Assembly: GCA_963667175.2 (NCBI GenBank)
Contig: CAXXXF010000016.1
Span: 352,001-416,000, forward strand
Length of the DNA: 64,000 nt
Source of the DNA: Candidatus Latescibacterota bacterium
GTDB taxonomy: Bacteria; Latescibacterota; UBA2968; GCA-2709665
Reading direction: 5' to 3'
Shown: positions 34,923 through 61,589 of the stretch, in pieces
Layout of the letters: each line of letters begins with the position of its first letter
Numbering within the stretch: position 1 is the stretch's first letter
Made by a program: the position numbers and the translations under genes
The notes under the pieces: model-generated
Database searches by the model: none
What the model was told of the DNA's origin: nothing
The model's input: only the letters and a program-made list of their open reading frames with translations

Positions 34923-34999
34923 GGGCCCTTAGCTCAGCTGGTTAGAGCGGCGGACTCATAATCCGTTGGTCGCAGGTTCGAGTCCTGCAGGGCCCACCA
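34923..34999 (+). tRNA. tRNA-Ile2 (anticodon CAT, lysidine-modified)
   Basis: Cloverleaf GGGCCCT...AGGGCCC-A-CCA, anticodon loop CTCATAA, T-loop TTCGAGT; paired 1:72 and no three-GC anticodon stem, so not the initiator; resembles ileX-type tRNAs. Confidence 0.9.
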
Positions 35000-35006
35000 G
35001 AACAGC

Positions 35007-37727: not shown

Positions 37728-38012
37728 TCACACCCGAGACATTGTCAAATGTTGTGGATAGCGTGGAATCGCGGAACGCCGTCCCCCTCGGTCGCTGCGC
37801 CACCTTGAGTGCCGTCTACCTTCACGGATCATTTCGCACCCGTGCCGCCGAAGGTTTTTCAGCAGTTCAACCCGCTTCAAGTTATCACGACCTTCTCCTC
37901 GATGATAGTCCTCGCCCGCCGCCTCCAAAGCTTCACGCCGGTTATATTCCAATGCTTCGGAGAGGGTTTCCGTGAGGCTGACAGTGAATGCGTCGGCCAT
38001 TCGGAAGTTCAT
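37728..38012 (-). pseudogene. Chimeric remnant: first 13 codons of the UvrD-like helicase fused to the 3' half of hicB, followed by truncated hicA
   Basis: MNFRMADAFTVSL matches helicase MNFRIADTFTDSL; ETLSEALEYNRREALEAAGEDYH matches HicB at 62103-62312; KRVELLKNLRRHGCEMIREGRRHS is HicA-like. Confidence 0.8.
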
Positions 38013-38049: not shown

Positions 38050-38712
38050 TCAGGTTGCAAGCAGGTTTCTGGAGGATTGACGTTCGAAAGACCCCCACGA
38101 ACAATAACAGCGCAAAGATACCTTGCGGAATTTTGGTGCAACCTTGGAGACGATGAGTTTCTCACGGGCCTGCCACATAGTATCGTGCAGGTTCTTGCTG
38201 TCATATCCGCCAAAAGTTGGAATCATCTTTAAATCCAGAAATCCTCGCGAAATTTGACTGCGTCCTCTCAGCTTGTTTTCTATCCAATAACCCTCCTCGG
38301 TAGGATGCCTAGGTAATATATGTCCGTTTCTAAAGTCCGAGTTCCAGCGAAAAAAGTCACTGGATATGCACTGAAACAGGCCTTCTGATACAGCAAAGAG
38401 ATCCAGGTCAGAACTTCGACCAAATGGAGCACCGAGTTTATACGGCGCCAATGACGATCCTAGGCGTGCGCTACCGACCAAGCTAATGTCTTTGGCGACA
38501 ACGCCAAGTTTCCAACCGAGCCACGTCCGCATCGACTCATATATTGCCGGACATTCTTGAAACGCATAGGGGATACCCTCGGAGAGCCATTGACGTGCTA
38601 TAGCGACTCGGTCGCGAAACTCACTCTGGCGCGAAACCGATTTCAATCGTTCCGCGGGCGGATAGCGATCAGATATTCCTGCCAATGATGAAGAGACCTC
38701 AAACGGCTTCAT
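38050..38712 (-). CDS. Putative Pol-beta-superfamily nucleotidyltransferase
   Basis: LVGSARLG...SDLDLFAVS (GS...DxD); start overlaps the transglycosylase stop by 14 bp. Confidence 0.6.
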   Translation of the reverse strand: MKPFEVSSSLAGISDRYPPAERLKSVSRQSEFRDRVAIARQWLSEGIPYAFQECPAIYESMRTWLGWKLGVVAKDISLVGSARLGSSLAPYKLGAPFGRSSDLDLFAVSEGLFQCISSDFFRWNSDFRNGHILPRHPTEEGYWIENKLRGRSQISRGFLDLKMIPTFGGYDSKNLHDTMWQAREKLIVSKVAPKFRKVSLRCYCSWGSFERQSSRNLLAT

Positions 38713-39304
38713 TGCACACTTCGGGAGTCAAGTAGCGCTTTCCCTCTGATCGATAATATCGCGCCAAAAGGTAGGCACTTCTTTGTTCTATTATGGTTAG
38801 CCGTTCGGCAGAGGCTTGCCTCGGCTCCGGATATTTTAGACGTGCGACTAAGTGTGCTGCACTGTACAAATCTGTCGATGAGGGGTTGATTTCCAGCAGG
38901 TTGCACGCCTGACGGAGGTTGTTCATTCTCCATCCGTAGTAAGCCACCCACAGATATAGGCCCGGAAGATCTTCTCGTGGGACGTAACGAGTTACCCGGA
39001 AAGCGAGTGCTATCTCGCGAGTTTTTCTCATGATGGTCGCGTCGTATCTCTTTGTAAGGACCCTGACAAGCTGCATTGCAATGGTGGAGCCCCCTTCCCG
39101 ACGCCCGCAGACGAAGGTCCGCCAAGCCGCGCGACCAAGCGCGATCGGATCGAACCCCGGATGGAAACGAAATCGGTGGTCTTCTCCCAGAATAAGCAAT
39201 GTGCACATCTGTCGGTTTGGCTGACCGACAGGATGGCTGTAGTATTCGCTCCGAACGAGGTCGATTTCCTTCTTCAGTTTCTTCCAATCACCATTGAAAT
39301 TCAT
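38699..39304 (-). CDS. Stand-alone GT51 (PBP transglycosylase) domain protein without membrane anchor
   Basis: EDHRFRFHPG, GGSTIAMQL, RKTRE, YLWVAYYG motifs; ATG 5 bp after the stop of the mod remnant. Confidence 0.75.
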   Translation of the reverse strand: MNFNGDWKKLKKEIDLVRSEYYSHPVGQPNRQMCTLLILGEDHRFRFHPGFDPIALGRAAWRTFVCGRREGGSTIAMQLVRVLTKRYDATIMRKTREIALAFRVTRYVPREDLPGLYLWVAYYGWRMNNLRQACNLLEINPSSTDLYSAAHLVARLKYPEPRQASAERLTIIEQRSAYLLARYYRSEGKRYLTPEVCNEAV

Positions 39305-39309
39305 TCCAA

Positions 39310-39519
39310 TCACATCCTGGACACCTTCATTACCTCGTCCCCAAGGTAAATCTACAGCCTTTACGGCAATCCGTCCTGATGACGGTTTGGGGAATTGTCG
39401 TGAGGTGTCGCTGTGACACGTATCCAACGTTTACCTGTTGATCTCGGCTTCGAGGGCGGTCTTGAGAGATTTATACGGTTCGATTGCGCCGAAGAAGTAT
39501 GCCTGGAGAACGAAGAAGC
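39310..39519 (-). pseudogene. Degenerate copy of the 3' end of the DNA methyltransferase gene
   Basis: Aligns to 57581-57789 (HSDTSRQFPKPSSGRIAVK...GDEVMKV); contains frameshifts. Confidence 0.88.
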
Positions 39520-39549
39520 AGGTTGGGTGACTATTGGATGCAACCCGTT

Positions 39550-40737
39550 CTATGCTTCGGTCGAGCGCATATCAAACGTCAACCTGACGTACCCACCCTT
39601 GTCGTCCTGAAAGAGATCAGGCTCGGTTCCATTAATGTCGAACATTGATTCTCGCATCACGGGCCACCCCCTACCCCGTTTCTCCATCAATCCTTTGACG
39701 ACCATGTTGTTCGCCATAGATTCGTTCCGGGATCGGGGATGGGCGCCAGCGCGAACACGCTCAACCGTCATGTGGTTTGGAAGCGTACCGGTACTCGTAA
39801 CGTCGACATGATCATCGTAAACCTCTAACAGGACATTCGAGCCGGTGATGGCATAGTCCCTGTGCACGACCGCGTTGACCAGCGCCTCCCTCAGTGCCGC
39901 TTCCGGTAAAGGGCCTCGGTCTTCTCGAAACAGATTTCTATAGGTCTCAAATCGCCCAAGCCCTTGGAACCATCCGACGGCACGTTGAACCTGCTCGTCC
40001 AAACGACCTTTGACATCAGCCACTTGTAACGTATTAGAAGCCCGGTCGTCACCTTCGTATGCGACGCATTGTATCCGAAAGCCGTGCGTTTGTGGGTAGC
40101 GCTGCGGTTCCTTGCCGAATGCCAGCACACCGTAGAGAGTGGGGTGCAAACCGTCTCCCAATTGTGCCACCACCCCGCGATTGCGGAGATCGTCAAAATT
40201 GTCAGGCTGAGGTTCTCCGAGAATATCGAGCCCGATCGCTTGCAAATACTCGCGAAAGCACTGGATATCGATATCCTCTGGTGTCGCAGCCTGAATCGGG
40301 CGTTCCTCGGTCATAATGTAACCGAAAGCGTTGTAGAGTTCCTGTAATTCGCTGGGTGATGGCTCGACGTTGCTGCGTTCCCGTCGGACCCAAACCCGGC
40401 CATCGTAGCACATCGGTTCGAAACTTCGCTGCCGAGGAATCTCAATCCAGTGTACCCAACCTTTCGGATGCTCATGCCACCCGCGACGTGCGGTTACCGG
40501 CGAGCTGCAACCCATTTTCAGGAAAGATGTCAACCTCTCCTGAACTCTTTCCACATCCTCTTTGACCCCCACAACTCCATGAGAAGGGTCGACGCCCAGC
40601 ATAATAACGCCGCCATCGGTGTTTGCAAATGCGCATATCGCTTTGCCGATCGCAGAAAGGTCGCCAGGGCCGCGTTTGAACTCGCTGTGCCGGTCCTCGC
40701 CAAGTTCGACCCGCTCAAGGGTGTTTAGCCAAACCAT
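39550..40737 (-). CDS. Schlafen/AlbA_2 + HATPase_c_4 (RecG-C-like) protein, copy 2
   Basis: GEDRHSEFKR, ICAFANTDGG, REALVNAVVHRDY, RSRN, MEKRGRG; paralogue of 53553-54731. Confidence 0.85.
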   Translation of the reverse strand: MVWLNTLERVELGEDRHSEFKRGPGDLSAIGKAICAFANTDGGVIMLGVDPSHGVVGVKEDVERVQERLTSFLKMGCSSPVTARRGWHEHPKGWVHWIEIPRQRSFEPMCYDGRVWVRRERSNVEPSPSELQELYNAFGYIMTEERPIQAATPEDIDIQCFREYLQAIGLDILGEPQPDNFDDLRNRGVVAQLGDGLHPTLYGVLAFGKEPQRYPQTHGFRIQCVAYEGDDRASNTLQVADVKGRLDEQVQRAVGWFQGLGRFETYRNLFREDRGPLPEAALREALVNAVVHRDYAITGSNVLLEVYDDHVDVTSTGTLPNHMTVERVRAGAHPRSRNESMANNMVVKGLMEKRGRGWPVMRESMFDINGTEPDLFQDDKGGYVRLTFDMRSTEA

Positions 40738-41024
40738 CAAACTTCCAATTCCTGATAACTCTTCAATGTGCTCATATTTCGCCACCATCCTGCCTCTACT
40801 GGTCACCAGCTACTGACGACTGTAACATCCGGCTCCCCGAAGATGCCAAAGAGTTTTCCCGTGCCGTGTTTTTATTGGCTTCGGCCATATGGAGGTCTAC
40901 GTTCATACGAGTCTTTAGAACCGTGACGCGACCGAAATCTCTGTAATCCAAAGCGTGGGCATCCCAACTAGAGCGCGGGAGATCAACAGGTCGATTTCAG
41001 CGCATGTTTGTTCCTGACCTTGGC

Positions 41025-42834: not shown

Positions 42835-42977
42835 TTATACCCGAAACACCTTCATCACCTCGTCGCCAAGGTGATTTATTACCTTCACAGCAATCCTACC
42901 GGACGTTGGTTTGGCGAAGGGCCGGGATGTGTCGCTATGGAGCGTTTCCCAGGCTTCCTGATTGATTTCGGCCTTAA
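42835..42977 (-). pseudogene. Copy of the 3' end of the DNA methyltransferase gene, truncated by IS1380
   Basis: Translates KAEINQEAWETLHSDTSRPFAKPTSGRIAVKVINHLGDEVMKVFRV*, one residue different from the intact gene despite many synonymous changes. Confidence 0.92.
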
Positions 42978-44122
42978 CCTCAATGTGAAATTAATCAGGC
43001 GGCTTTCTGTAGGGCATTGCAATTTCGCGGTATTGTTTTTCGGTCTGCTTGTTGCGTTGGAGTCGCAGGGTGAGTCGTCCTTTTGGTCGGATGAAGTAGC
43101 CTGCGCGGTTGATGAGTTCGAACCGGAGTTTGCGTATGGATTTGAGGGCCCACCTGCCTGCTGCAGGCAGGTCGGTTGGTACTTTTCAAGGTGCGATTGC
43201 GTTGTGTCAGTCCGGTATCGATTTCGAAGTTGACCAGTCGGAGGGTGTAGGCATCCCCCAAGGTTTCTTCGACCTGGGTAAACACGTCCTTTAGAAACGG
43301 GATGGAGGCGCTGCCGTCATTGACGTTGTCGGGACGGTTGTGCACGCCCAGAAAGTGACCACTGTCGGCCAGGTAGGCGGTAATCGGATAGTAACTGGGC
43401 ACTTTGCGATGGTGCGGATTATAGCCACGACGGGCGCCATCGACGTGCTTTCCCGCGCACAAGACCGTGCCGTCCACGTCGATGGTCAACGTGCGGGAGC
43501 GCAACGCCTTGATCCTATCAGCCCGTTGATAAAGTCCATCCGGTCTACGTCCGGCCCTTGTGACCGAATGACGGCGTTGCGCTCCCTCCCCGAATCCAGG
43601 GATTCGCGTCGGTCGCGCGCCTTGTCTTCGGCCACAATGACTCGGCCTCGCCTGCGGAGCGACTTTTTCAACGGACTGCTATGGGCAACAACGTCGGCGT
43701 TGAGGGCTTTCAGGGCATTGAGACCCTCGTCGGGAAACCGTCTCAGAAACGTGCTCATGCTGCGGGGGGTCGGTAAATCCGTCAGACCGCAAAACCGCGC
43801 CAACGCCCACACTGCCTAGGTGACGGCGCAATTGCCTGTTCCAATCCACGTTTCGCAAATATCGCGTCAACGGTTCCAGACCCGCATACGAGGTGAGGCC
43901 TTCACCGGTGAATTCCATCGTCAAATCGTCATTGACACGCGCGTGCAAATCTGCTTTCTTTCTCACTGTACGTGGCCTTTCGTTTTGGGTTAATTGGGTG
44001 TTTCGTCGCTTCCCAATATACCAAAATGGAAGGCCTTTTCCTATTGAAAAATATAGACTTATTCGCCACTTCGCTTCGTCTTCAATAACCCGAAATCCAT
44101 CAACATTATTTTCGCATTGAGG
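42978..44122 (-). mobile_element. Degraded IS1380-family element
   Basis: Terminal IRs CCTCAATGTGAAATTAAT / CCTCAATGCGAAAATAAT (16/18) flanked by TTAA on both sides; transposase fragments LTSYAGL, LTIDVDGT, GYNPHH...SYYP; internal deletions. Confidence 0.85.
43519..43678. mobile_element. 160-bp MITE inserted in the IS1380 transposase
   Basis: IRs CAGCCCGTTGATAAAGTC / GACTTTTTCAACGGACTG; CTAT target duplication at 43515-43518 and 43679-43682; removal restores the frame ADVVAHRIKALRSRTLTIDVDG. Confidence 0.88.
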
Positions 44123-44529
44123 TTAAACGGCCCTAATTGTCAGAGAAATAATCATCGCACCCATTAGAATATTACCCTATTCCAGAGGCCAAAAATACCT
44201 ACACGGGATTTATGATCCCCTAATCGGCCGGATTTAGACCGCACTTGGATGAGATCCAGGGGTATTCCAAGCCTCTGGGTCTTATTTTTCAGGATCATTA
44301 CTTGAGTCCACTCCGAAAAGTCAAAATCGGCTCCGACAAGGTCGTAAATCACACCTGTCCAAAATCGGTTTCAGTCTTGGACAGCATCTGGTTCACTTCC
44401 GCGAAGCAATCCCTCGACCAAGATTGCCTGAGATTCACAAAGTGCTTATTTCACGGGCTTATTGAGACGGAAACAGCACAATTATGGCCGCTGGAAACGT
44501 CACCTTGTTCTTGGACAGCATTGCGCAGA

Positions 44530-53258: not shown

Positions 53259-53467
53259 CTATACCCGAAACACCTTCATCACCTCGTCCCCGAGGTGGTC
53301 GATTACCTTTGCCTCAATCTGGCCGGACATTGGTTTGGCGAAAGGCCGGCATGTGTCGCTACGGAGCGGTTACCAGGCTTCTTGGTTTATTTCGGCTTTA
53401 AGGGTGTTCTTGAGCAACTTAAAGGGGTCGTCTGCGTCGAGAGAGTAGGCCTGGCGAACGAAGAAGC
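53259..53467 (-). pseudogene. Degenerate copy of the 3' end of the DNA methyltransferase gene
   Basis: FFVRQAYSLDADDPFKLLKNTLKAEINQEAW*PLRSDTCRPFAKPMSGQIEAKVIDHLGDEVMKVFRV*; colinear with 57581-57789, one internal stop. Confidence 0.92.
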
Positions 53468-53552
53468 AACGCTTGTCTTCGGCGGCATTAACAGAATAGG
53501 GGCCTAAGAAGCAGGTAGGGTGACTGTTGGATGCAATTCTCTTATTCTTCGG

Positions 53553-54731
53553 TCAGGTGCAGAGATCAAACGTCACCCTGACGTACCCACCTTTGTCGTC
53601 TTGCATTAAATCGGGCTCGGTTCCGTTGAAGTCGAGCATAGACTTGCGCATCACGGGCCATCCCCGACCCCGCTGCTCCATGAATCCCTTGGCAACCATA
53701 ATGTTTGCCATCAGTTCGTTCCGCGATCGTGGATGGGCTCCCGCACGGACGCTCTCAACCGTCATATGATTTGGCAGCGTACCGGGACTACTCACGTCGA
53801 TGTGCTCAGAGAAGACTTCAAGAAGCACTCGTGAACCGGTGATCGCGTAATCCCTATGCACAACGGCGTTGACTAACGCTTCCCTGAGCGCTGCTTCAGG
53901 CAAAAGCCAACGGTCTCTCCTGGTCAGTCCTCGATACGACTCGAATCGACCAAGACCGTGGAACCAACCGACGGCACGTCTGACCTGTTCATCCAATCGA
54001 CCAGTCGCGTCTGCTACCTGAAGCGTATTCGAAGCCCGGTCCTTGCCTTCATAAGCGACGCATTCTATCCGAAAACTGTGCGTTTGTGGGTAGCGCTGCG
54101 GTTCCTTGCCGAATGCCAGCACACCGTAGAGGGTGGGGTGCAAACCGTCTCCCAACTGTGCCACCACCCCCCGATTACGGAGGTCGTCCACGTCGTCCGG
54201 CTGAGGCTCTCCCAGAACGTCGAGTCCAATTGCCTGCAAATATTCGCGAAAGCACTGGAGATCAATTTGCTCCGGTGTTGCAGCCTGAATCGGGCGTTCC
54301 TCGGTCATAATGTAGCCGAAAGCGTTGTAGAGTTCCTGTAATTCGCTGGCCGACGGCTCGACGTTGCTGCGTTCGCGTCGGACCCAAACACGGCCATCGT
54401 AGCGCATCGGCTCGAAACTTCGCTGACGGGGCACTTCGATCCAGTGAATCCATCCGTTAGGGTCTTCATGACGTCCACCTTGGGCAGAAACCGGCGTACT
54501 GCATCCGGTTTGGAGAAACGCCGTCAATCGCTCTTGTACCCTTTCCGCATCCTCTTTGACCCCGACGATTTCCTGGGATTTATTTACACCAATGACGATA
54601 AGTCCTCCCTCGGTGTTTGCGAATGCGCACATCGCCCTGCCGATTGGAGACAGGTCGCCAGGGCCGCGTTTGAACTCGGTGTGCCGATCCTCGCCCAATT
54701 CGACTCGCCTAAGGATGTTTAGCCAATCCAT
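53553..54731 (-). CDS. Schlafen/AlbA_2 + HATPase_c_4 (RecG-C-like) protein, copy 1
   Basis: GEDRHTEFKR, CAFANTEGG, REALVNAVVHRDY, SPGTLP, RSRN, MEQRGRG. Confidence 0.85.
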   Translation of the reverse strand: MDWLNILRRVELGEDRHTEFKRGPGDLSPIGRAMCAFANTEGGLIVIGVNKSQEIVGVKEDAERVQERLTAFLQTGCSTPVSAQGGRHEDPNGWIHWIEVPRQRSFEPMRYDGRVWVRRERSNVEPSASELQELYNAFGYIMTEERPIQAATPEQIDLQCFREYLQAIGLDVLGEPQPDDVDDLRNRGVVAQLGDGLHPTLYGVLAFGKEPQRYPQTHSFRIECVAYEGKDRASNTLQVADATGRLDEQVRRAVGWFHGLGRFESYRGLTRRDRWLLPEAALREALVNAVVHRDYAITGSRVLLEVFSEHIDVSSPGTLPNHMTVESVRAGAHPRSRNELMANIMVAKGFMEQRGRGWPVMRKSMLDFNGTEPDLMQDDKGGYVRVTFDLCT

Positions 54732-54742
54732 ATTGAACGACC

Positions 54743-57520
54743 TCAAAAACCGTACTTCAATCGGCGTAGACGAAACGCATCATCGCCTCCATCAACGGTC
54801 CTGACAATAGAGTCCCGGACGGACGGTTCCTCAATGGCCCCCGAATGCACGACACGGCCACGATTTGCAGTAGCGTCAAGTTGAATTACCTGATCCGCGT
54901 CACCATTAACGACAATATCGGCATTGTGCGTTGCGACGATGATTTGTCTTCGACCCTTTAGCCGTTTAAGTGCGGGGAGAACCGTATCAGATAGAAACCG
55001 GTTGTCAAGTTCATCCTCGGGCTGGTCGATAACCAATGGACGTTCATCGCTAGTCTCAAGCAGCAGCGATAGCAGCAAGCTAACTCGCTGCCCTCCTGAG
55101 AGGTCGTCCAAACGCCGATGGCGTCCATCATCCATCCTTAGTTCCAATAAGTAATGGTCGCTGCAGCGAATGGCCGCAAGGTACCTCTGCTTTGTACGCG
55201 TCAACTGTTCTCGGAATGTAGATTGAACAGCGGCACTCATGCCGACTTCATTCAACGTGTCGTCGCTCAAATGACTAAGCAATTCGATCGGAGACGGTCT
55301 GCTCTGATTCTCCAATTCGTTCCACCACCTTGTGATCCCTCTCTTGCTCAAATCTCTTAGAAAGCGGTCCAGTGGCCCGCGACTGCCGTCGTCCACGCGA
55401 CGGGCCGAAATCCGCCCATCGAATTCTGCGAAGATCGTCTCGGTCACCCGGTCAAATGCAGCCCTCTGTTCCCCAACGAGCCCTTCTCTTTCATCGAGTA
55501 GCCCCTGGAAAGTTCGTTCAGCCTCAGAAAGCTCTTTACGTACCTTATTCAGATTCGCCTCGTAACTCTCTCTGAGCGAAGACTGGACGTTTAATGCCTG
55601 CAACTCCTTAATCTGTGACCCGTCAAGTCCACGCTTCGCCAGAGCTCGATCAACCTCGGTGTGAATGCCCTGCTCCTGAAGCTTCAGTGTCTCCAATATC
55701 GACAATGTTTTTGCATCCCAATCTCTCAGTTCAACTTTCGCAGATCTGATGTGTTCTCGGATTCGATTCCATGCTTCCTGCAACTCCTCACTCCTCACTC
55801 CTACGCCCGCGTTATCCACTGATCCTACAAAATAGTCGCCGGATTTGGGCAAACTGAAACCGTCCGTAACTCCTATTGCACGATCGAGATGGGTTCCCAG
55901 ATCTTCAGACACCTCACAGCATTCCTGCCATTGACGAATCGCACGTGCGACTTCGTGCAGCTTCTCTACACCTGCCTCTGAGAATGCTTCAAGTTTATTG
56001 GCGGCGATAACTGTCCGCTCATATGCCTGCTCAGCCTCGGAGAGAACATCATCGAGTTCCGCCAAGTGTTTCGCCTGGCGGTCAAGTTCCTTGTCGATCG
56101 CGCTTAATCGAGTCTGACGCTCCACGATTCTTGACATCTGTGACGGAACAAGCCTCGTGAGAATCTCTTCCACGGCACTTGGTTCTTGTGCGAGCCGATG
56201 CAGTTCATTCTGTGCGTAAAATACCGCGGGCCACCTCTCACGATCCGGTGCGGTAGGATCCTGGCCCGGACAATCGAGTGAGACCTCAGCCGAACCAGCG
56301 AGAAACCTTTCCTTGCCACGTGCTTCTACCTGCTTTCTGATGCCGTCGTCTTGTGGCAATGCCGCATCGGTGTATAGTCGCAGTCCATCCAAAAACGTGC
56401 TCTTGCCCGTCATGCTGCCGCCGATAATGCATGTTAGATCAGGGCTGAGGTGGAAACTCGTGGCTGGCTCATTTTCTGCAGTTGTACCAAAAAACGACGC
56501 CCGCCCGTCGATTGTGACCGTCTTGAGCCAAGGCCGTTGGTTAATGGTGACATCGGGCGGGTTTGCAATCTCAACTAGACCGCCACTTGCGTCGCGTTCG
56601 TAACCGATGCGCACCCGCGAGTCGCTAGCGATAAAGGCCTGTCGAAGAGCCTCGACTCTTGGGCTCGCAAGCTTCAGCCACGTGTGACGCTTACCGATTT
56701 CGTCCACCGAATAGGCGTCGCTTCCGTGAAAAAACGCCAAGTGATTCGCAGCCATCCCTTCGGGCAACCACTCACGGTTTTTCATTGCGTCGTCGGCAAG
56801 TTTTCCGTCGCCAAGTTCAAGCCCAGTCACTTCACTATGGGGGAAGTTCTTTAGAACCTGCGCGTTGAGTGCTCCGAGAAGACCCTTATTGTTATCGATA
56901 TGGGGCGCAAGCGTAATGTAGTTCCATTCAGGCTGCCCACATTCGTCCAAGGGGCACTCTTGACGATGGAATTCACGCAGATCTCGGAAAACCTCGTCGG
57001 CGTTTTTGCTGGAGATTTGTAGGTCCTTGCCCCGCCATGGCGACACGCCACCCATGGCCAAATAAAACGCTTTCATATAACCATCACGACCGACCTCAGG
57101 ATCAAAGAGAAAAATGAGATGCAATCCTCGCTTTCCCTGTTTGAGTGACGGCTCGAAGCCGGGAAAGACAGCATATATCTTCTCCCTGAAGGGTTTTCCG
57201 TCATCGTCAACGCCAACGTTCCACTCATCTACGATTTGCCAGACTGCGCTCGTATCGACTCCTGTTTCAACACACGATGAATGCGGTGTAATGCCCAATA
57301 CTCGTACATCCCGAGCGGCCGCATTCTGTAGAAATATCCTAGCATATGCCTTAAGTGTCTCCTTGGATACGGGTCGACGAAATTTCACGCCGTTAGGAAC
57401 CTTCGCCCTGTCACCATCAATGTCATCTATTGTATGGATATGTAAGTCCGCCTTGAACCACCGTGCGCCCGGGACGTCCCGGTGCCAGTTGTCGGCCTCC
57501 TGCCGTTTAAAGAAATCCAT
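54743..57520 (-). CDS. PHP phosphoesterase + coiled-coil ATPase fusion (Ppl/TrlF-like)
   Basis: WFKADLHIHT, ITPH, GSDAY PHP motifs; GGSMTGKST, LSGGQR, IDQPEDELD, THNA. Confidence 0.85.
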   Translation of the reverse strand: MDFFKRQEADNWHRDVPGARWFKADLHIHTIDDIDGDRAKVPNGVKFRRPVSKETLKAYARIFLQNAAARDVRVLGITPHSSCVETGVDTSAVWQIVDEWNVGVDDDGKPFREKIYAVFPGFEPSLKQGKRGLHLIFLFDPEVGRDGYMKAFYLAMGGVSPWRGKDLQISSKNADEVFRDLREFHRQECPLDECGQPEWNYITLAPHIDNNKGLLGALNAQVLKNFPHSEVTGLELGDGKLADDAMKNREWLPEGMAANHLAFFHGSDAYSVDEIGKRHTWLKLASPRVEALRQAFIASDSRVRIGYERDASGGLVEIANPPDVTINQRPWLKTVTIDGRASFFGTTAENEPATSFHLSPDLTCIIGGSMTGKSTFLDGLRLYTDAALPQDDGIRKQVEARGKERFLAGSAEVSLDCPGQDPTAPDRERWPAVFYAQNELHRLAQEPSAVEEILTRLVPSQMSRIVERQTRLSAIDKELDRQAKHLAELDDVLSEAEQAYERTVIAANKLEAFSEAGVEKLHEVARAIRQWQECCEVSEDLGTHLDRAIGVTDGFSLPKSGDYFVGSVDNAGVGVRSEELQEAWNRIREHIRSAKVELRDWDAKTLSILETLKLQEQGIHTEVDRALAKRGLDGSQIKELQALNVQSSLRESYEANLNKVRKELSEAERTFQGLLDEREGLVGEQRAAFDRVTETIFAEFDGRISARRVDDGSRGPLDRFLRDLSKRGITRWWNELENQSRPSPIELLSHLSDDTLNEVGMSAAVQSTFREQLTRTKQRYLAAIRCSDHYLLELRMDDGRHRRLDDLSGGQRVSLLLSLLLETSDERPLVIDQPEDELDNRFLSDTVLPALKRLKGRRQIIVATHNADIVVNGDADQVIQLDATANRGRVVHSGAIEEPSVRDSIVRTVDGGDDAFRLRRLKYGF

Positions 57521-57580: not shown

Positions 57581-60379
57581 TCACACCCGAAACACCTTCA
57601 TCACCTCGTCGCCAAGGTGATTGATTACCTTTACCGCGATTCTGCCTGATTTCGGTTTTGCGAATGGCCGGGATGTGTCGCTGTGAAGGGTTTCCCAAGC
57701 TTCCTGGTTGATTTCGGCCTTGAGGGTTGTCTTGAGAGACTTGTACGGATCGTTCGCACCGAGGAAGTAGGCCTGGCGAACGAAGAAGCTCTCCTCGTTG
57801 TAGTCAGTGTCCACAAACCAGCAGGCGATTCCGTCGGCGTTATCGCTTCGGACCTCGCCGGTGTTGGGGTGGAAAACATCAACTCCATTGACTTTGACCT
57901 TGATTTGACCGTCTTCCGCGTCGAGGATGTCGATGTCCGGCTCCCCGAAGATGACAAATAGATTTCCTTTTCCCGTGTTCTTAAGGTCTTCGGCCATGTG
58001 GAGGTCGGCATTCATGCGCGCTTTGAGAACGGGGATTCGGCCAGCTTTGTTGAAGTCCGATGCGTGAGCATCGTAGTTGAAGGCACAGGCGATCAACACG
58101 TCGAAATCAGCATCGGCGGCCTCCCGGGCGGCCTGTACCAGATCGGGGCGGGAGACCGTACCGAATTCGGGCCCAACAAAGATACCAGCGCGTTTCTCCG
58201 AGCCGTATGACGCGTTGCCTTCAGCATACGTCCCCTCGGCGCAGACGAGGTCACCGGGCCAGGGTCTCATCCCAGAGAAATAAATCCGGTCTTCTTTGTG
58301 CGCCTGCTGGACGCCCGCGTTTTTGAGATTATCCAGGATCACCTCAGCGAAGTCCGGCTTTTCTCCGTAGCCGAGTTTCCCCTCGGCGACATTGTCTATC
58401 AATGCATCGTCTTCGTCGACACCGAGTAGTCGGTGCGGCGAGAGACTCTCGACCGTAAACGGTCCCGCTACCCTCACTTTCTTCTTGTCCTCGTACGGCT
58501 TGTCGTAAAGATACTCGGAATCGGCCTTTGCAGTGATCGAAGCGTCAATTTCCTTCTGCCGTGCGATGCGCTGTTCCCAGAAAGCAGTGAGAATCGGCTT
58601 AGTGGCCGGTGGCCAGTCGGGTGGCAGCTCTCGCGGGACCTCCCATTCTTCGAGCGTCCTCGCCTGGCCACCCGTTGCTGACAGCCGTCCGCGGAGTTTC
58701 GCGAGGTTCTCCTCATGTTTCTCCCAGATTACATCGATTTCGGCGTTGTTGGCGATGGACCTGAGCGTGATGTGAGGAACGCGTTCGTACACGAATCCCT
58801 GGCGAACGTCGTTATAAGTGGGCCGCTCCGGGGGAGCTTTGCGGGAGAGCGCGGCTTCCTTCAATTGCCCTTCTCTACTATCTGCAAGCAAATAATACGG
58901 ATAGCGTGCGCCCATGATGCGGGCGCGGGCCAGTGCCAGGGAGACTCGCGAGGTATCGATGGTGATCCAGCGGCGACCCCACTGCTCGGCGACGTAGGCC
59001 GTGGTGCCGGAGCCACAGGTGGGATCGAGGACTAAATCACCCGGGTCGCTCGTCATAAGTATACAGCGTTGGACTACCTTTCGTAGAGTTTGTACAACAT
59101 ACAGCTTTTCGTCACCGAATCCACTAATCCGTGTATCAAGCCACGTGGCATCAAGGCGAAAATAGGGGGCATCATTGAAATAGCGAATATATTCAGGCGT
59201 GTTGCCAAAACGCATAATTCGATTAGCGTTTTGGAGCCGGCACATGCCAGTGTAGTTTGTCTTCCATCCTCCCTTTCGTGGTGCATTTATCTTATAGCCC
59301 TCCATCTCAAACGGAAATATCGTGGATTCGCTCCCAGTCTGAGATTTCAGGTTGAAATGACCAAAAAGCCGATCTCCATTCAAATCATCAGGGTTAGTGA
59401 TCCTTCTGACCTCGCCCTTATTCGACATAGCGAACTTGTACTGTAGTGCGCCCGCCTCGCCTTGCACCCTTTCGCGAAATAAACGACGAAATTTCAGTCG
59501 TGACTTATCTTTTGCGAACCACAAAATATAATCAAAGGTATCGTCAACATACCTTCCACCAAGTCCAGTTGTCTTGGCGAACTTCAAAACGACAATACAG
59601 TTCTCTTCACCGAAGATCTCGTCCATCAATGCTCGCATCCGATGCACGTTATCGTCACCAATCTGCATAAATAGCGACCCACTGTCTATCAGCAAATCCC
59701 GCGCAACTGTCAGCCGATCCCGCAGATACGTCAAATACGAATGAATCCCATCCCGCCATGTATCCCGAAACGCCTTCACCTGTTCCGGTTCGCGAGTGAT
59801 GTGATCGGCCTTGCCGTCCTTGACGTCGCGGCTGGTCGTTGACCACTGGAAGTTGGAGTTGAACTTGATGCCGTAGGGCGGGTCGATGTAGATGCACTGC
59901 ACCTTGCCGCGCAGCCCCTCCCGCTCCGCCAGCGACGCCATTACCTGCAAGCTGTCGCCGAGAATCATTCGATTCGACCAATTGGCGTCGTGTTGGTAGA
60001 ACTCCGTCTGGGCGTCAGCGCTCGGCAAACCATTGAAATCCGCGAAAAGGTCGGCTTGTGCGCCGTCGCCGTTCTCCTGCTCCGCTTCCGTCTGCCTAGT
60101 GCGCTGCCGCAGGTCGTCGATCAATACCTTCGGTTGTACCTTCTCTTGGATAAAAAGCGGTGGCGCTTGCACGACAAGATCAGACCAATTCTGTTCATCC
60201 TTCCCCCGCCAGACAAGCTGGGGGTCAAGATCCCGGTTGCGACGCGCGTACGCGACCTGGATCGGATTGCGGTCGTCTTCCGCCATCACCGCCTGATACT
60301 CAGCCGTGGGAATATTCTTCCGCGATGCGTCCTGGTGCCGCAGGGTTTCGACAGTCTTGGTCGATTTTCGTTTCGCCAT
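57581..60379 (-). CDS. Site-specific adenine DNA methyltransferase (type III Mod-like, beta class)
   Basis: YIDPPYG catalytic motif precedes LVLDPTCGSGTT SAM-binding motif; 932 aa. Confidence 0.92.
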   Translation of the reverse strand: MAKRKSTKTVETLRHQDASRKNIPTAEYQAVMAEDDRNPIQVAYARRNRDLDPQLVWRGKDEQNWSDLVVQAPPLFIQEKVQPKVLIDDLRQRTRQTEAEQENGDGAQADLFADFNGLPSADAQTEFYQHDANWSNRMILGDSLQVMASLAEREGLRGKVQCIYIDPPYGIKFNSNFQWSTTSRDVKDGKADHITREPEQVKAFRDTWRDGIHSYLTYLRDRLTVARDLLIDSGSLFMQIGDDNVHRMRALMDEIFGEENCIVVLKFAKTTGLGGRYVDDTFDYILWFAKDKSRLKFRRLFRERVQGEAGALQYKFAMSNKGEVRRITNPDDLNGDRLFGHFNLKSQTGSESTIFPFEMEGYKINAPRKGGWKTNYTGMCRLQNANRIMRFGNTPEYIRYFNDAPYFRLDATWLDTRISGFGDEKLYVVQTLRKVVQRCILMTSDPGDLVLDPTCGSGTTAYVAEQWGRRWITIDTSRVSLALARARIMGARYPYYLLADSREGQLKEAALSRKAPPERPTYNDVRQGFVYERVPHITLRSIANNAEIDVIWEKHEENLAKLRGRLSATGGQARTLEEWEVPRELPPDWPPATKPILTAFWEQRIARQKEIDASITAKADSEYLYDKPYEDKKKVRVAGPFTVESLSPHRLLGVDEDDALIDNVAEGKLGYGEKPDFAEVILDNLKNAGVQQAHKEDRIYFSGMRPWPGDLVCAEGTYAEGNASYGSEKRAGIFVGPEFGTVSRPDLVQAAREAADADFDVLIACAFNYDAHASDFNKAGRIPVLKARMNADLHMAEDLKNTGKGNLFVIFGEPDIDILDAEDGQIKVKVNGVDVFHPNTGEVRSDNADGIACWFVDTDYNEESFFVRQAYFLGANDPYKSLKTTLKAEINQEAWETLHSDTSRPFAKPKSGRIAVKVINHLGDEVMKVFRV

Positions 60380-61307: not shown

Positions 61308-61589
61308 TGATCACCTCCCGTTCCACGTAGGGGCGTATCTCCATCCGTAGATCCTGGCGGGTTGCCAAATCCACCGGTCGCCCCAACTGATCTTCCAGGT
61401 ATGCCTGAGCGCCGAAATAAGTTCCCAATCTGGCGGCACGCCAAACCGCACCAGGACATCTACGTCGCTGTCCCCTGCGGCCTGGTCTCGGGCAAAGGAG
61501 CCGAAGAGGGCCAGCTCGGTGACGCCAAAACGCTGCCCAAGGGTCGCCTTGTGCGCTCGGAGCACGCCCAGGACTTCATCTCTCGTCAT
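61300..61589 (-). pseudogene. Frameshifted MNT-type nucleotidyltransferase antitoxin
   Basis: LALFGSFARDQA..DSDVDVLV, then YLEDQLGRPVDL...IRPYVERE in another frame; 290 bp, not a multiple of 3. Confidence 0.8.

Follow-up and report, generated by a model that had tools for sequence, protein, structure and literature searches.

The stretch of DNA analyzed here, 64,000 nucleotides of the genome of Candidatus Latescibacterota bacterium (assembly GCA_963667175.2, contig CAXXXF010000016.1, positions 352,001 to 416,000; hereafter, the window), contains, within an island of defence-type genes, a pair of genes that encode a small protein of the peptidoglycan glycosyltransferase family GT51 and a partner of an uncharacterized family, probably a divergent minimal nucleotidyltransferase (Table 1). 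Both open reading frames (ORFs) are found on the minus strand, with the 14-nucleotide overlap between them, just where the original prediction of two overlapping genes had put them, and this overlap of the GT51 stop with the partner start is, as judged from the reading frames, indicative of translational coupling. A longer, 242-aa reading of the GT51 gene from a TTG codon (to 39427) was rejected given that its first 41 residues are the frameshifted 3'-end remnant of a methyltransferase gene. Also rejected, as a further member of the unit, was a HicA-like 94-aa ORF at 37728-38012, on the 3' side of the pair, for which the match to HicA_toxin is below the threshold (Pfam, E 9e-4) and which does not keep its position next to the pair in other loci.

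The GT51 enzymes are the textbook polymerases of the bacterial cell wall that act outside the cytoplasm and are targets of antibiotics; the family is defined by the motif EDxxFxxHxG, with the catalytic glutamate, and the motif RKxxE, with a second glutamate. The 201-aa protein matches the Pfam family Transgly (PF00912) with an E-value of 1e-22 and 80.9 bits (cut-off 27), over positions 24-175 of the 178 in the profile, the closest NCBIfam model being the N-terminal module of PBP_1c, and contains the signature motifs in the form EDHRFRFHPG, GGSTIAMQ and RKTRE. In the alignment of its homologues, E41, D42, H48, G71, S73, T74, Q78, R93, K94 and E97 are invariant in 47/47 sequences, the motifs of the family align with those of Aquifex aeolicus PBP1a and of the solved GT51 domains (E 2e-31), and the region between motifs 1 and 3 is present, that is, the domain is of full length. 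The AlphaFold 2 model (mean pLDDT, the predicted local confidence, of 91.6) superposes on known GT51 domains: the best Foldseek match is the glycosyltransferase domain of A. aeolicus PBP1a (3nb6; E 9e-7, TM-score 0.68), followed by Staphylococcus aureus MtgA, and of the 17 matches in the PDB at E<=1e-3, all those among the matches listed are GT51 entries. The protein shares with MtgA/SaMGT and with the glycosyltransferase module of the class A penicillin-binding proteins (PBPs) both the fold (TM-scores of 0.62-0.68 to 3nb6, 2oqo, 3vms and 3hzs) and the motifs EDxxFxxHxG, GxST..Q and RKxxE. It differs from them in lacking an N-terminal transmembrane anchor and a transpeptidase domain, in possessing signatures of its own subfamily, in being tied or fused to a nucleotidyltransferase-like protein, in its patchy distribution, and in its location in defence islands and prophage cargo regions rather than in conserved chromosomal positions. 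Among the subfamily signatures, GGSTIAMQ replaces the canonical TQQ, and ARLKYPEP replaces the PKAP region; the latter motif, including Y158, is invariant and subfamily-specific, and one could speculate that Y158 is a modification site. This form of about 200 aa is conserved in hundreds of clusters (831 matches), which the databases name 'penicillin-binding protein 1A', 'PbpC' or 'biosynthetic peptidoglycan transglycosylase', the partner being 'hypothetical'.

An N-terminal membrane anchor is usual in MtgA and in class A PBPs. No transmembrane helix is detectable in the GT51 protein of the window or its relatives, the best 19-residue Kyte-Doolittle window not exceeding 1.53 in 47/47 homologues, compared to maxima of 2.1-2.2 in the two ordinary full-length class A PBPs that the host genome also encodes. 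Neither the GT51 protein nor the partner contains an export signal, a transpeptidase domain would not fit into 201 aa, and in seven loci the GT51 ORFs, of 189-192 aa, leave no room for an upstream extension. Thus, Pfam, alignment and hydropathy agree with the original description of a GT51 domain that has the catalytic motif and is devoid of a transmembrane helix, a signal peptide and a transpeptidase; the absence of an anchor appears to be the rule for this family of sequences although it may not be universal.

The partner is a far more difficult case. Its motif consists of G80-S81 followed by D102-L103-D104; in 63 sequences, G80, G85, S101, D102 and D104 are invariant, and S81 and D160 are conserved in at least 90%, as are L43, S44, I47, Y58 and W64 of a separate N-terminal block in which W42, E45, G46, P48, F51, P55 and R62 are invariant. 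The model of the partner (pLDDT 94.3) shows the order of elements alpha-beta-alpha-beta, a two-helix insert, and beta-alpha-beta-alpha, with G80-S81 after the first strand, D102 and D104 at the second (103-108), and D160 on the third (158-160). These are the positions of the motifs on strands 1-3 in the Pol-beta-type nucleotidyltransferase layout. Likewise, the signature of minimal nucleotidyltransferases (MNTs), hG[GS] followed by [DE]x[DE] and a third carboxylate on a later strand, is matched by G80/S81, D102/D104 and D160. A VIA-align search of 48,161 chains put three MNTs at the top, namely, HI0073 (1no5_B, Z 5.1), the MNT of a HEPN-MNT complex (8xeh_E, Z 4.4) and 1wot (Z 4.3), with a fourth MNT, 5yep, at Z 3.6, all of which fall below the value of 8 under which, by the tool's own warning, a match may be due to chance. 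Comparison with the sequences of the PDB, with a single sequence and with a profile, yielded nothing meaningful (best E 0.5), and PHROGs yielded only weak matches to families without an assigned function; among 30 neighbours in the ESM Atlas, 29 are unnamed clusters and that at rank 21 carries PF01909, the MNT family, on 11% of its members, which is a lead only. Taken together, the motifs, the topology and the VIA-align matches point, if weakly, to the partner being, probably, a very divergent MNT. The family is large, with 250 matches in the search of clusters at 90% identity and, at 50% identity, 1326, 658 and 290 clusters at E<=1e-3, 1e-10 and 1e-30, respectively. The host genome itself has an unusually large complement of MNTs, with PF01909 matched at 25 places, one of these in the window near 61383-61559.

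Strong evidence comes from the association of the two genes across genomes. Among 54 partner loci drawn from one-genome-per-species collections (185,579 species genomes), 51 have the GT51 gene immediately upstream of the partner and in the same orientation, including two (L011 and L022) where the contig carries no more than the 3' end of the GT51 gene; of the three exceptions, one lies at a contig edge (L044) and two have truncated partner genes (L047 and L048). Both loci that were identified in a search of 2.9 million viral contigs contain the pair (2/2). Viewed from the side of the GT51 gene, in the best 80 metagenome loci, the partner lies directly downstream in 63/80, or in 63/69 once the 11 loci with less than 200 nucleotides after the gene are set aside; in one of the remaining loci (L139), the pair is split by an inserted gene on the opposite strand, and five have the room and no partner. 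Altogether, the pair is found on one strand in 117 loci, so the pairing is far beyond chance, and the two genes go together nearly without exception. Where the start of the partner could be resolved (91 junctions), 54 pairs overlap by exactly 14 nucleotides and 12 by 23, and overlap or fusion is found in 87/91. All five of the longer partner homologues, a Vibrio mytili protein included, are GT51-partner fusions (5/5), as are all five proteins of at least 400 aa among the top 150 partner representatives (5/5), and the databases contain at least 10 such fusion proteins. Furthermore, the pairwise identities of the GT51 and partner proteins in 42 loci are correlated at r=0.80, a value not reached in any of the permutations of a Mantel test (0/999). 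No third gene is conserved by the pair, the largest cluster of neighbours being DNA methyltransferases, in 4 loci only. We have to conclude that the GT51 gene and its partner are almost certainly an obligate functional pair. The reading we favour is that they form a self-contained, horizontally mobile two-gene module with products that work together, probably as a complex. Prediction of that complex from both alignments gave a score of 0.00 in two runs, without controls, which has no bearing on binding.

Two of these loci deserve separate mention. In the cultured Vibrio mytili CAIM 528, the pair is a single 404-aa ORF (L015:5440-6654) with the junction in an A-rich run where a sequencing error is possible, yet at least 9 other proteins are fused in the same manner. 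In one Poribacteria genome, the partner is split, with residues 1-84 following the GT51 gene (L047) and residues 78-217 opening another contig (L053) where this piece adjoins a type I restriction-modification system; the split could stem from a break in the assembly or from an insertion.

The maximum-likelihood tree that was built for the partner shows an interleaving of phyla inside well-supported clades, with at least 7 changes for Pseudomonadota, and mixed clades unite Chlorobium with Alcanivorax, Binatia with Smithella, and the sequence from the window with those from Gemmatimonadota, Latescibacterota and Acidobacteriota. This mixing fits horizontal transfer, with the proviso that most of the records are metagenome bins. 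Cultured carriers include, besides V. mytili CAIM 528, Alkalimonas collagenimarina AC40, Alcanivorax sp. 1008 and Pseudomonas sp. Gutcm_11s. The spaces after gpD and between tail fibre genes and the integrase are usual places of prophage cargo, and the two viral loci are such cargo regions, one following gpU and gpD in a P2-like prophage and the other one between the tail-fibre genes and the integrase of a lambdoid prophage.

In the window itself, the G+C fraction, about 0.62 up to position 35000, is only about 0.52 beyond it, the drop coming just past dnaG and the tRNA-Met gene, and the content of all the rest of the window is of the defence type by Pfam and PADLOC (Table 1). A 27-nucleotide repeat that occurs in this island in 4 copies, with 0 expected, turned out to be a part of the last 230 or so nucleotides of the methyltransferase gene: tblastn with the intact methyltransferase identifies 3' remnants at 39313-39544, 42838-42978 and 53262-53492, and all four copies align. 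One such 3'-end remnant lies directly upstream of each of the GT51 pair, HEC-01A/B and the RT_UG5-nitrilase DRT, and the same junction of the methyltransferase stop with the GT51 start is found in other loci, next to an intact methyltransferase in L002, L004 and L073 and a remnant in L001. Because all these units follow the 3' end of a methyltransferase gene, the slot of the pair is equivalent to those of HEC-01, the DRT and the Ppl-like ATPase. This equivalence is a stronger argument for a role in defence than mere proximity, and comparison of the four copies suggests that recombination at the conserved 3' end of the methyltransferase gene serves to exchange defence cassettes. The 'cassette slot' of the original prediction was, therefore, an apt term, although unexpectedly so, since the boundary of the slot is the methyltransferase remnant.

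Table 1. Features of the window at and around the GT51-partner pair.
Feature	Position	Strand	Remarks
GT51 gene	38699..39304	-	ATG at 39304; 201 aa
Partner gene	38050..38712	-	220 aa; family uncharacterized; probably a divergent minimal nucleotidyltransferase containing a helical insert
Overlap of GT51 stop and partner start	38699..38712	-	14 nucleotides, read from the sequence
Methyltransferase 3'-end remnant (aa 856-932)	39313..39544	-	tblastn; ends 8 nucleotides before the GT51 start
tRNA-Met	34923..34999	+	ARAGORN; edge of the island
Cas4-like nuclease	island		Defence-type
GmrSD/HEC-06	island		E 1e-225
SLFN-AlbA_2 + HATPase_c_4 paralogues (two)	39550-40806, 53553-54746		Each just upstream of a methyltransferase remnant
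HEC-01A/B	island		Preceded by remnant 42838-42978
GajB-like helicase	island		Defence-type
RT_UG5-nitrilase DRT	island		E 6e-113; preceded by remnant 53262-53492
Ppl-like ATPase	island		Follows the intact methyltransferase
Type III-like DNA methyltransferase, intact	57581-60379		In the island

The two paralogous SLFN-AlbA_2 genes of the island could encode regulators or belong to the repeated unit, and in L004 another homologue of theirs, the third, is found ahead of the methyltransferase. A fourth methyltransferase remnant, at 40835-40966, is an internal piece (aa 769-812) that lies between an SLFN-AlbA_2 gene and HEC-01B. Fragments of a DDE transposase (42995-43812) separate the HEC-01 unit from the next part of the island, and inverted repeats of 22 nucleotides that are 91% complementary are present at 42974-42995 and 44105-44126.

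So does the pair correspond to any known system? None of the 5027 models of PADLOC-DB v2.0.0 matches either protein at E<=0.01, and a literature search that covered sources other than subscription journals and supplements found no publication that connects GT51 or other peptidoglycan glycosyltransferases with abortive infection or defence islands, the papers it did bring up being concerned, as judged from titles and abstracts, with tRNA or lytic transglycosylases or with unrelated systems; the original remark that the pair is not recognized as a named system stands. The closest parallel is the type VII module HEPN-MNT (HepT/MntA), which is likewise a mobile two-gene module, at times fused, that includes a minimal nucleotidyltransferase, and the MNT of such a complex is among the best, albeit low-scoring, structural matches of the partner together with HI0073 and 1wot. 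The differences are that the second protein is a GT51 protein instead of a HEPN RNase, that the gene order is reversed, with the nucleotidyltransferase downstream, and that the partner is twice as large, with a conserved 75-aa N-terminal region, a two-helix insert and no PF01909 match. AbiE and MenAT (DUF1814), which are linked to abortive infection, also consist of two genes with the nucleotidyltransferase-fold protein downstream; the partner, in contrast, shows no similarity to DUF1814, and the upstream gene here encodes an enzyme, not a DNA-binding antitoxin. The Pol-beta signature GS...DxD and the two-gene operons in defence islands are shared with the CD-NTases of the CBASS type, the differences being that no CD-NTase or effector model of PADLOC is matched and that the GT51 protein contains no recognizable nucleotide-sensor domain. 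The cGAS-like enzymes are, moreover, far larger than the partner, and the frequent fusion of the GT51 protein with the partner favours direct action over a diffusible signal. The pair is a real two-gene unit, probably a conflict module with a role in defence, that is not described in the sources covered, and the enzyme that accompanies the nucleotidyltransferase in it has no precedent in such modules in PADLOC, Pfam or the literature searched.

The GT51 protein keeps the catalytic signatures of the family and has neither an anchor nor an export signal; therefore, it should act from the cytoplasmic side. We infer both its activity and its substrate, lipid II being the simplest choice. A model for the proposed control of this activity is suggested, by analogy, by the HEPN-MNT modules in which MNT antitoxins AMPylate HEPN toxins, MntA neutralizing HepT in this manner, and fused MNT-HEPN forms exist (PMC7641770, PMC11586414, PMC13000451). 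Under this scenario, the nucleotidyltransferase would keep the GT51 protein in check, for example, by nucleotidylation, as MntA does with HepT; infection or loss of control would free the GT51 protein, which would then, on the cytoplasmic face of the membrane, use up lipid II or some other precursor linked to undecaprenyl pyrophosphate; and the resulting drain of the carrier-lipid pool would halt wall synthesis and abort the infection. The confidence that can be attached to the parts of this reading differs. That the pair has a conflict or defence function, whether anti-phage or similar to toxin-antitoxin systems, and not one in wall growth, appears, on balance, rather probable. As a whole, a conflict module in which the GT51 protein is controlled by an MNT-type nucleotidyltransferase is the best explanation we can offer, at roughly even odds of being correct. 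The specific mechanism involving the GT51 activity and nucleotidylation, drawn by analogy, should be regarded as a tentative sketch that may well prove wrong.

Several observations weigh against this reading. To begin with, the evidence of a conflict role is one of association, and in other genomes this association is uneven. The survey covered 169 ORFs of 51 loci, the closest two on either flank of the pair, with a Pfam scan of 150 of these and a PADLOC comparison (E<=1e-20) of the 122 left once 47 with a clear Pfam assignment had been set aside. A restriction or defence gene was detected within two ORFs of the pair in 21/51 loci, a raw count without a background rate, 17 of these by PADLOC and another 4 through Pfam alone (Mrr-type genes in L019, L022 and L032; HSDR_N_2 with DUF4062 in L042), with an ABC transporter (L022) and an SMC protein (L023) left out of the 17 as both match ATPase models. 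About 30/51 loci have no recognizable defence neighbour at this distance, the neighbours being unassigned or housekeeping genes, and in L020, L021 and L036 the pair sits among housekeeping genes. No mur, fts or class A PBP gene is present among the scanned neighbours, and homologues in cell wall operons were not seen. The neighbourhoods of the pair are rich in defence genes; the anti-phage function originally proposed is argued from association. The assignment of the partner is vulnerable as well, not only on account of the low VIA-align scores: no family was found for it in Pfam (E<=10), hence no PF01909 match, in NCBIfam (E<=1) or in PADLOC, Foldseek yields no match for the model at E<=1e-3, poly(A) polymerase and Pol mu appearing only at E>2, and hhalign of the partner with ten MNT ORFs of the host genome gives a weak probability of 34%, in a register that puts GS on GS and SDLDL on SDVDL. 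The originally predicted GS...DxD motif of the 220-aa protein is, then, present and conserved, and MNTs top the structural matches, whereas the identification of an enzyme depends on faint fold and profile signals.

The GT51 side is not free of complications either. In L021, L024, L031 and L052, an upstream start could endow the GT51 protein with a hydrophobic N-terminal helix, and the topology may differ in these cases. Close relatives of the GT51 protein with other partners exist too; the five that have no nucleotidyltransferase-like partner are all in the lowest-scoring third of the 80 loci listed. One of them, in L144 (2245-3294), at rank 72 of the 80 and with 44% identity over residues 33-187, carries a fused glucosaminidase domain (PF01832) and adjoins a CHAP protein (L144:3364-3996), a hint that mature peptidoglycan, outside the cytoplasm, might be its target. 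Two other proteins of about 400 aa (L138:698-1891 and L149:1081-2283) combine GT51 with a hydrophobic N-terminal region of about 235 aa that belongs to no known family; the one in L138 is adjacent to an AbiU2-type HEPN gene (HEPN_AbiU2).

What else could the pair be? The roles might be reversed, such that the nucleotidyltransferase is the toxic effector, modifying, for instance, tRNA or another nucleic acid in the way of MenT or AbiEii, and the GT51-like protein is a sensor or antitoxin that reads the state of the wall precursors or binds muropeptides imported at phage entry or lysis. The downstream position of the nucleotidyltransferase gene is that of AbiEii in AbiE, and the most conserved block of the partner, the N-terminal WLSEGIP..F..P..YE..R.W, could be a regulatory interface. 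Nucleotidyltransferase toxins that block growth through tRNA are an established precedent (PMC7450476, PMC10435456). A mere antitoxin or sensor would not be expected, however, to keep both glutamates and all the GT51 motifs in 47/47 sequences, and the partner, with no Pfam match at E<=10, shows no similarity to DUF1814, its fold matches being of the MNT antitoxin type, so this inversion of roles seems unlikely, if worthy of attention. The databases' naming of the homologues as PBP 1A, PbpC or a biosynthetic transglycosylase would fit an ordinary or decaying fragment of a class A PBP that happens to lie beside an unrelated gene; this is next to impossible to reconcile with a form of about 200 aa that persists in hundreds of clusters with invariant catalytic residues and the same partner, without any transpeptidase remnant after the GT51 domain, in a genome that retains its two full-length class A PBPs, and with a patchy distribution, 54 loci among the species genomes searched.

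Functions in the envelope that have nothing to do with defence have to be considered as well, such as the making or modification of a lipid-linked glycan or protection from antibiotics, in which case a decoy GT51 would bind a phosphoglycolipid of the moenomycin type, and the nucleotidyltransferase would inactivate the antibiotic as ANT and Lnu do. Resistance nucleotidyltransferases belong to the same superfamily, and resistance-like genes are neighbours of the pair in L016 (a transpeptidase-fold protein beside a metallo-beta-lactamase-fold protein) and L033 (a beta-lactamase and a GNAT protein), in addition to the many loci lacking a defence neighbour. But these are 2/51 loci only, genes for glycan synthesis do not co-occur with the pair, and neither protein has an export signal, while such antibiotics act outside the cytoplasm; with the equivalence of the defence-cassette slots and the prophage cargo positions pointing elsewhere, we deem a function of this kind improbable. 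Still less credible is a GT51 protein that serves as a wall-directed weapon or lysis factor outside the cytoplasm of the producer, with the partner as a regulator or immunity factor. Endolysins and contact-delivered effectors also have no signal peptides, and the missing signal peptide is compatible with such a factor, as is the GT51-glucosaminidase fusion beside the CHAP protein in L144. That protein, however, is among the most distant GT51 matches and comes without the partner; the pair has no conserved neighbours among holin, secretion-system or tail genes; the GT51-partner fusions place both domains in one compartment; and the partner, with its catalytic-type residues and no signal peptide, is unlike periplasmic immunity proteins.

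A widespread, mobile GT51 protein that lacks an anchor and is locked to a nucleotidyltransferase is not described in anything that could be searched, and the cultured carriers make the pair directly amenable to experiment. If the mechanism proposed here holds, which we would not rate as likely, a peptidoglycan polymerase operating on the wrong side of the membrane would, for the first time, be the effector of an immune or addiction module; it would polymerize or trap lipid II at the inner leaflet, deprive the cell of undecaprenyl phosphate and be held in check by MNT nucleotidylation, and the stand-alone GT51 domain would be a reusable effector that is also wired to a membrane protein or to a glucosaminidase. 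Should the pair prove to be a defence or toxin-antitoxin system, the lipid II and carrier-lipid pathway would join the targets of bacterial immune suicide, and the type VII logic, that is, control by nucleotidylation, would extend beyond the HEPN RNases.

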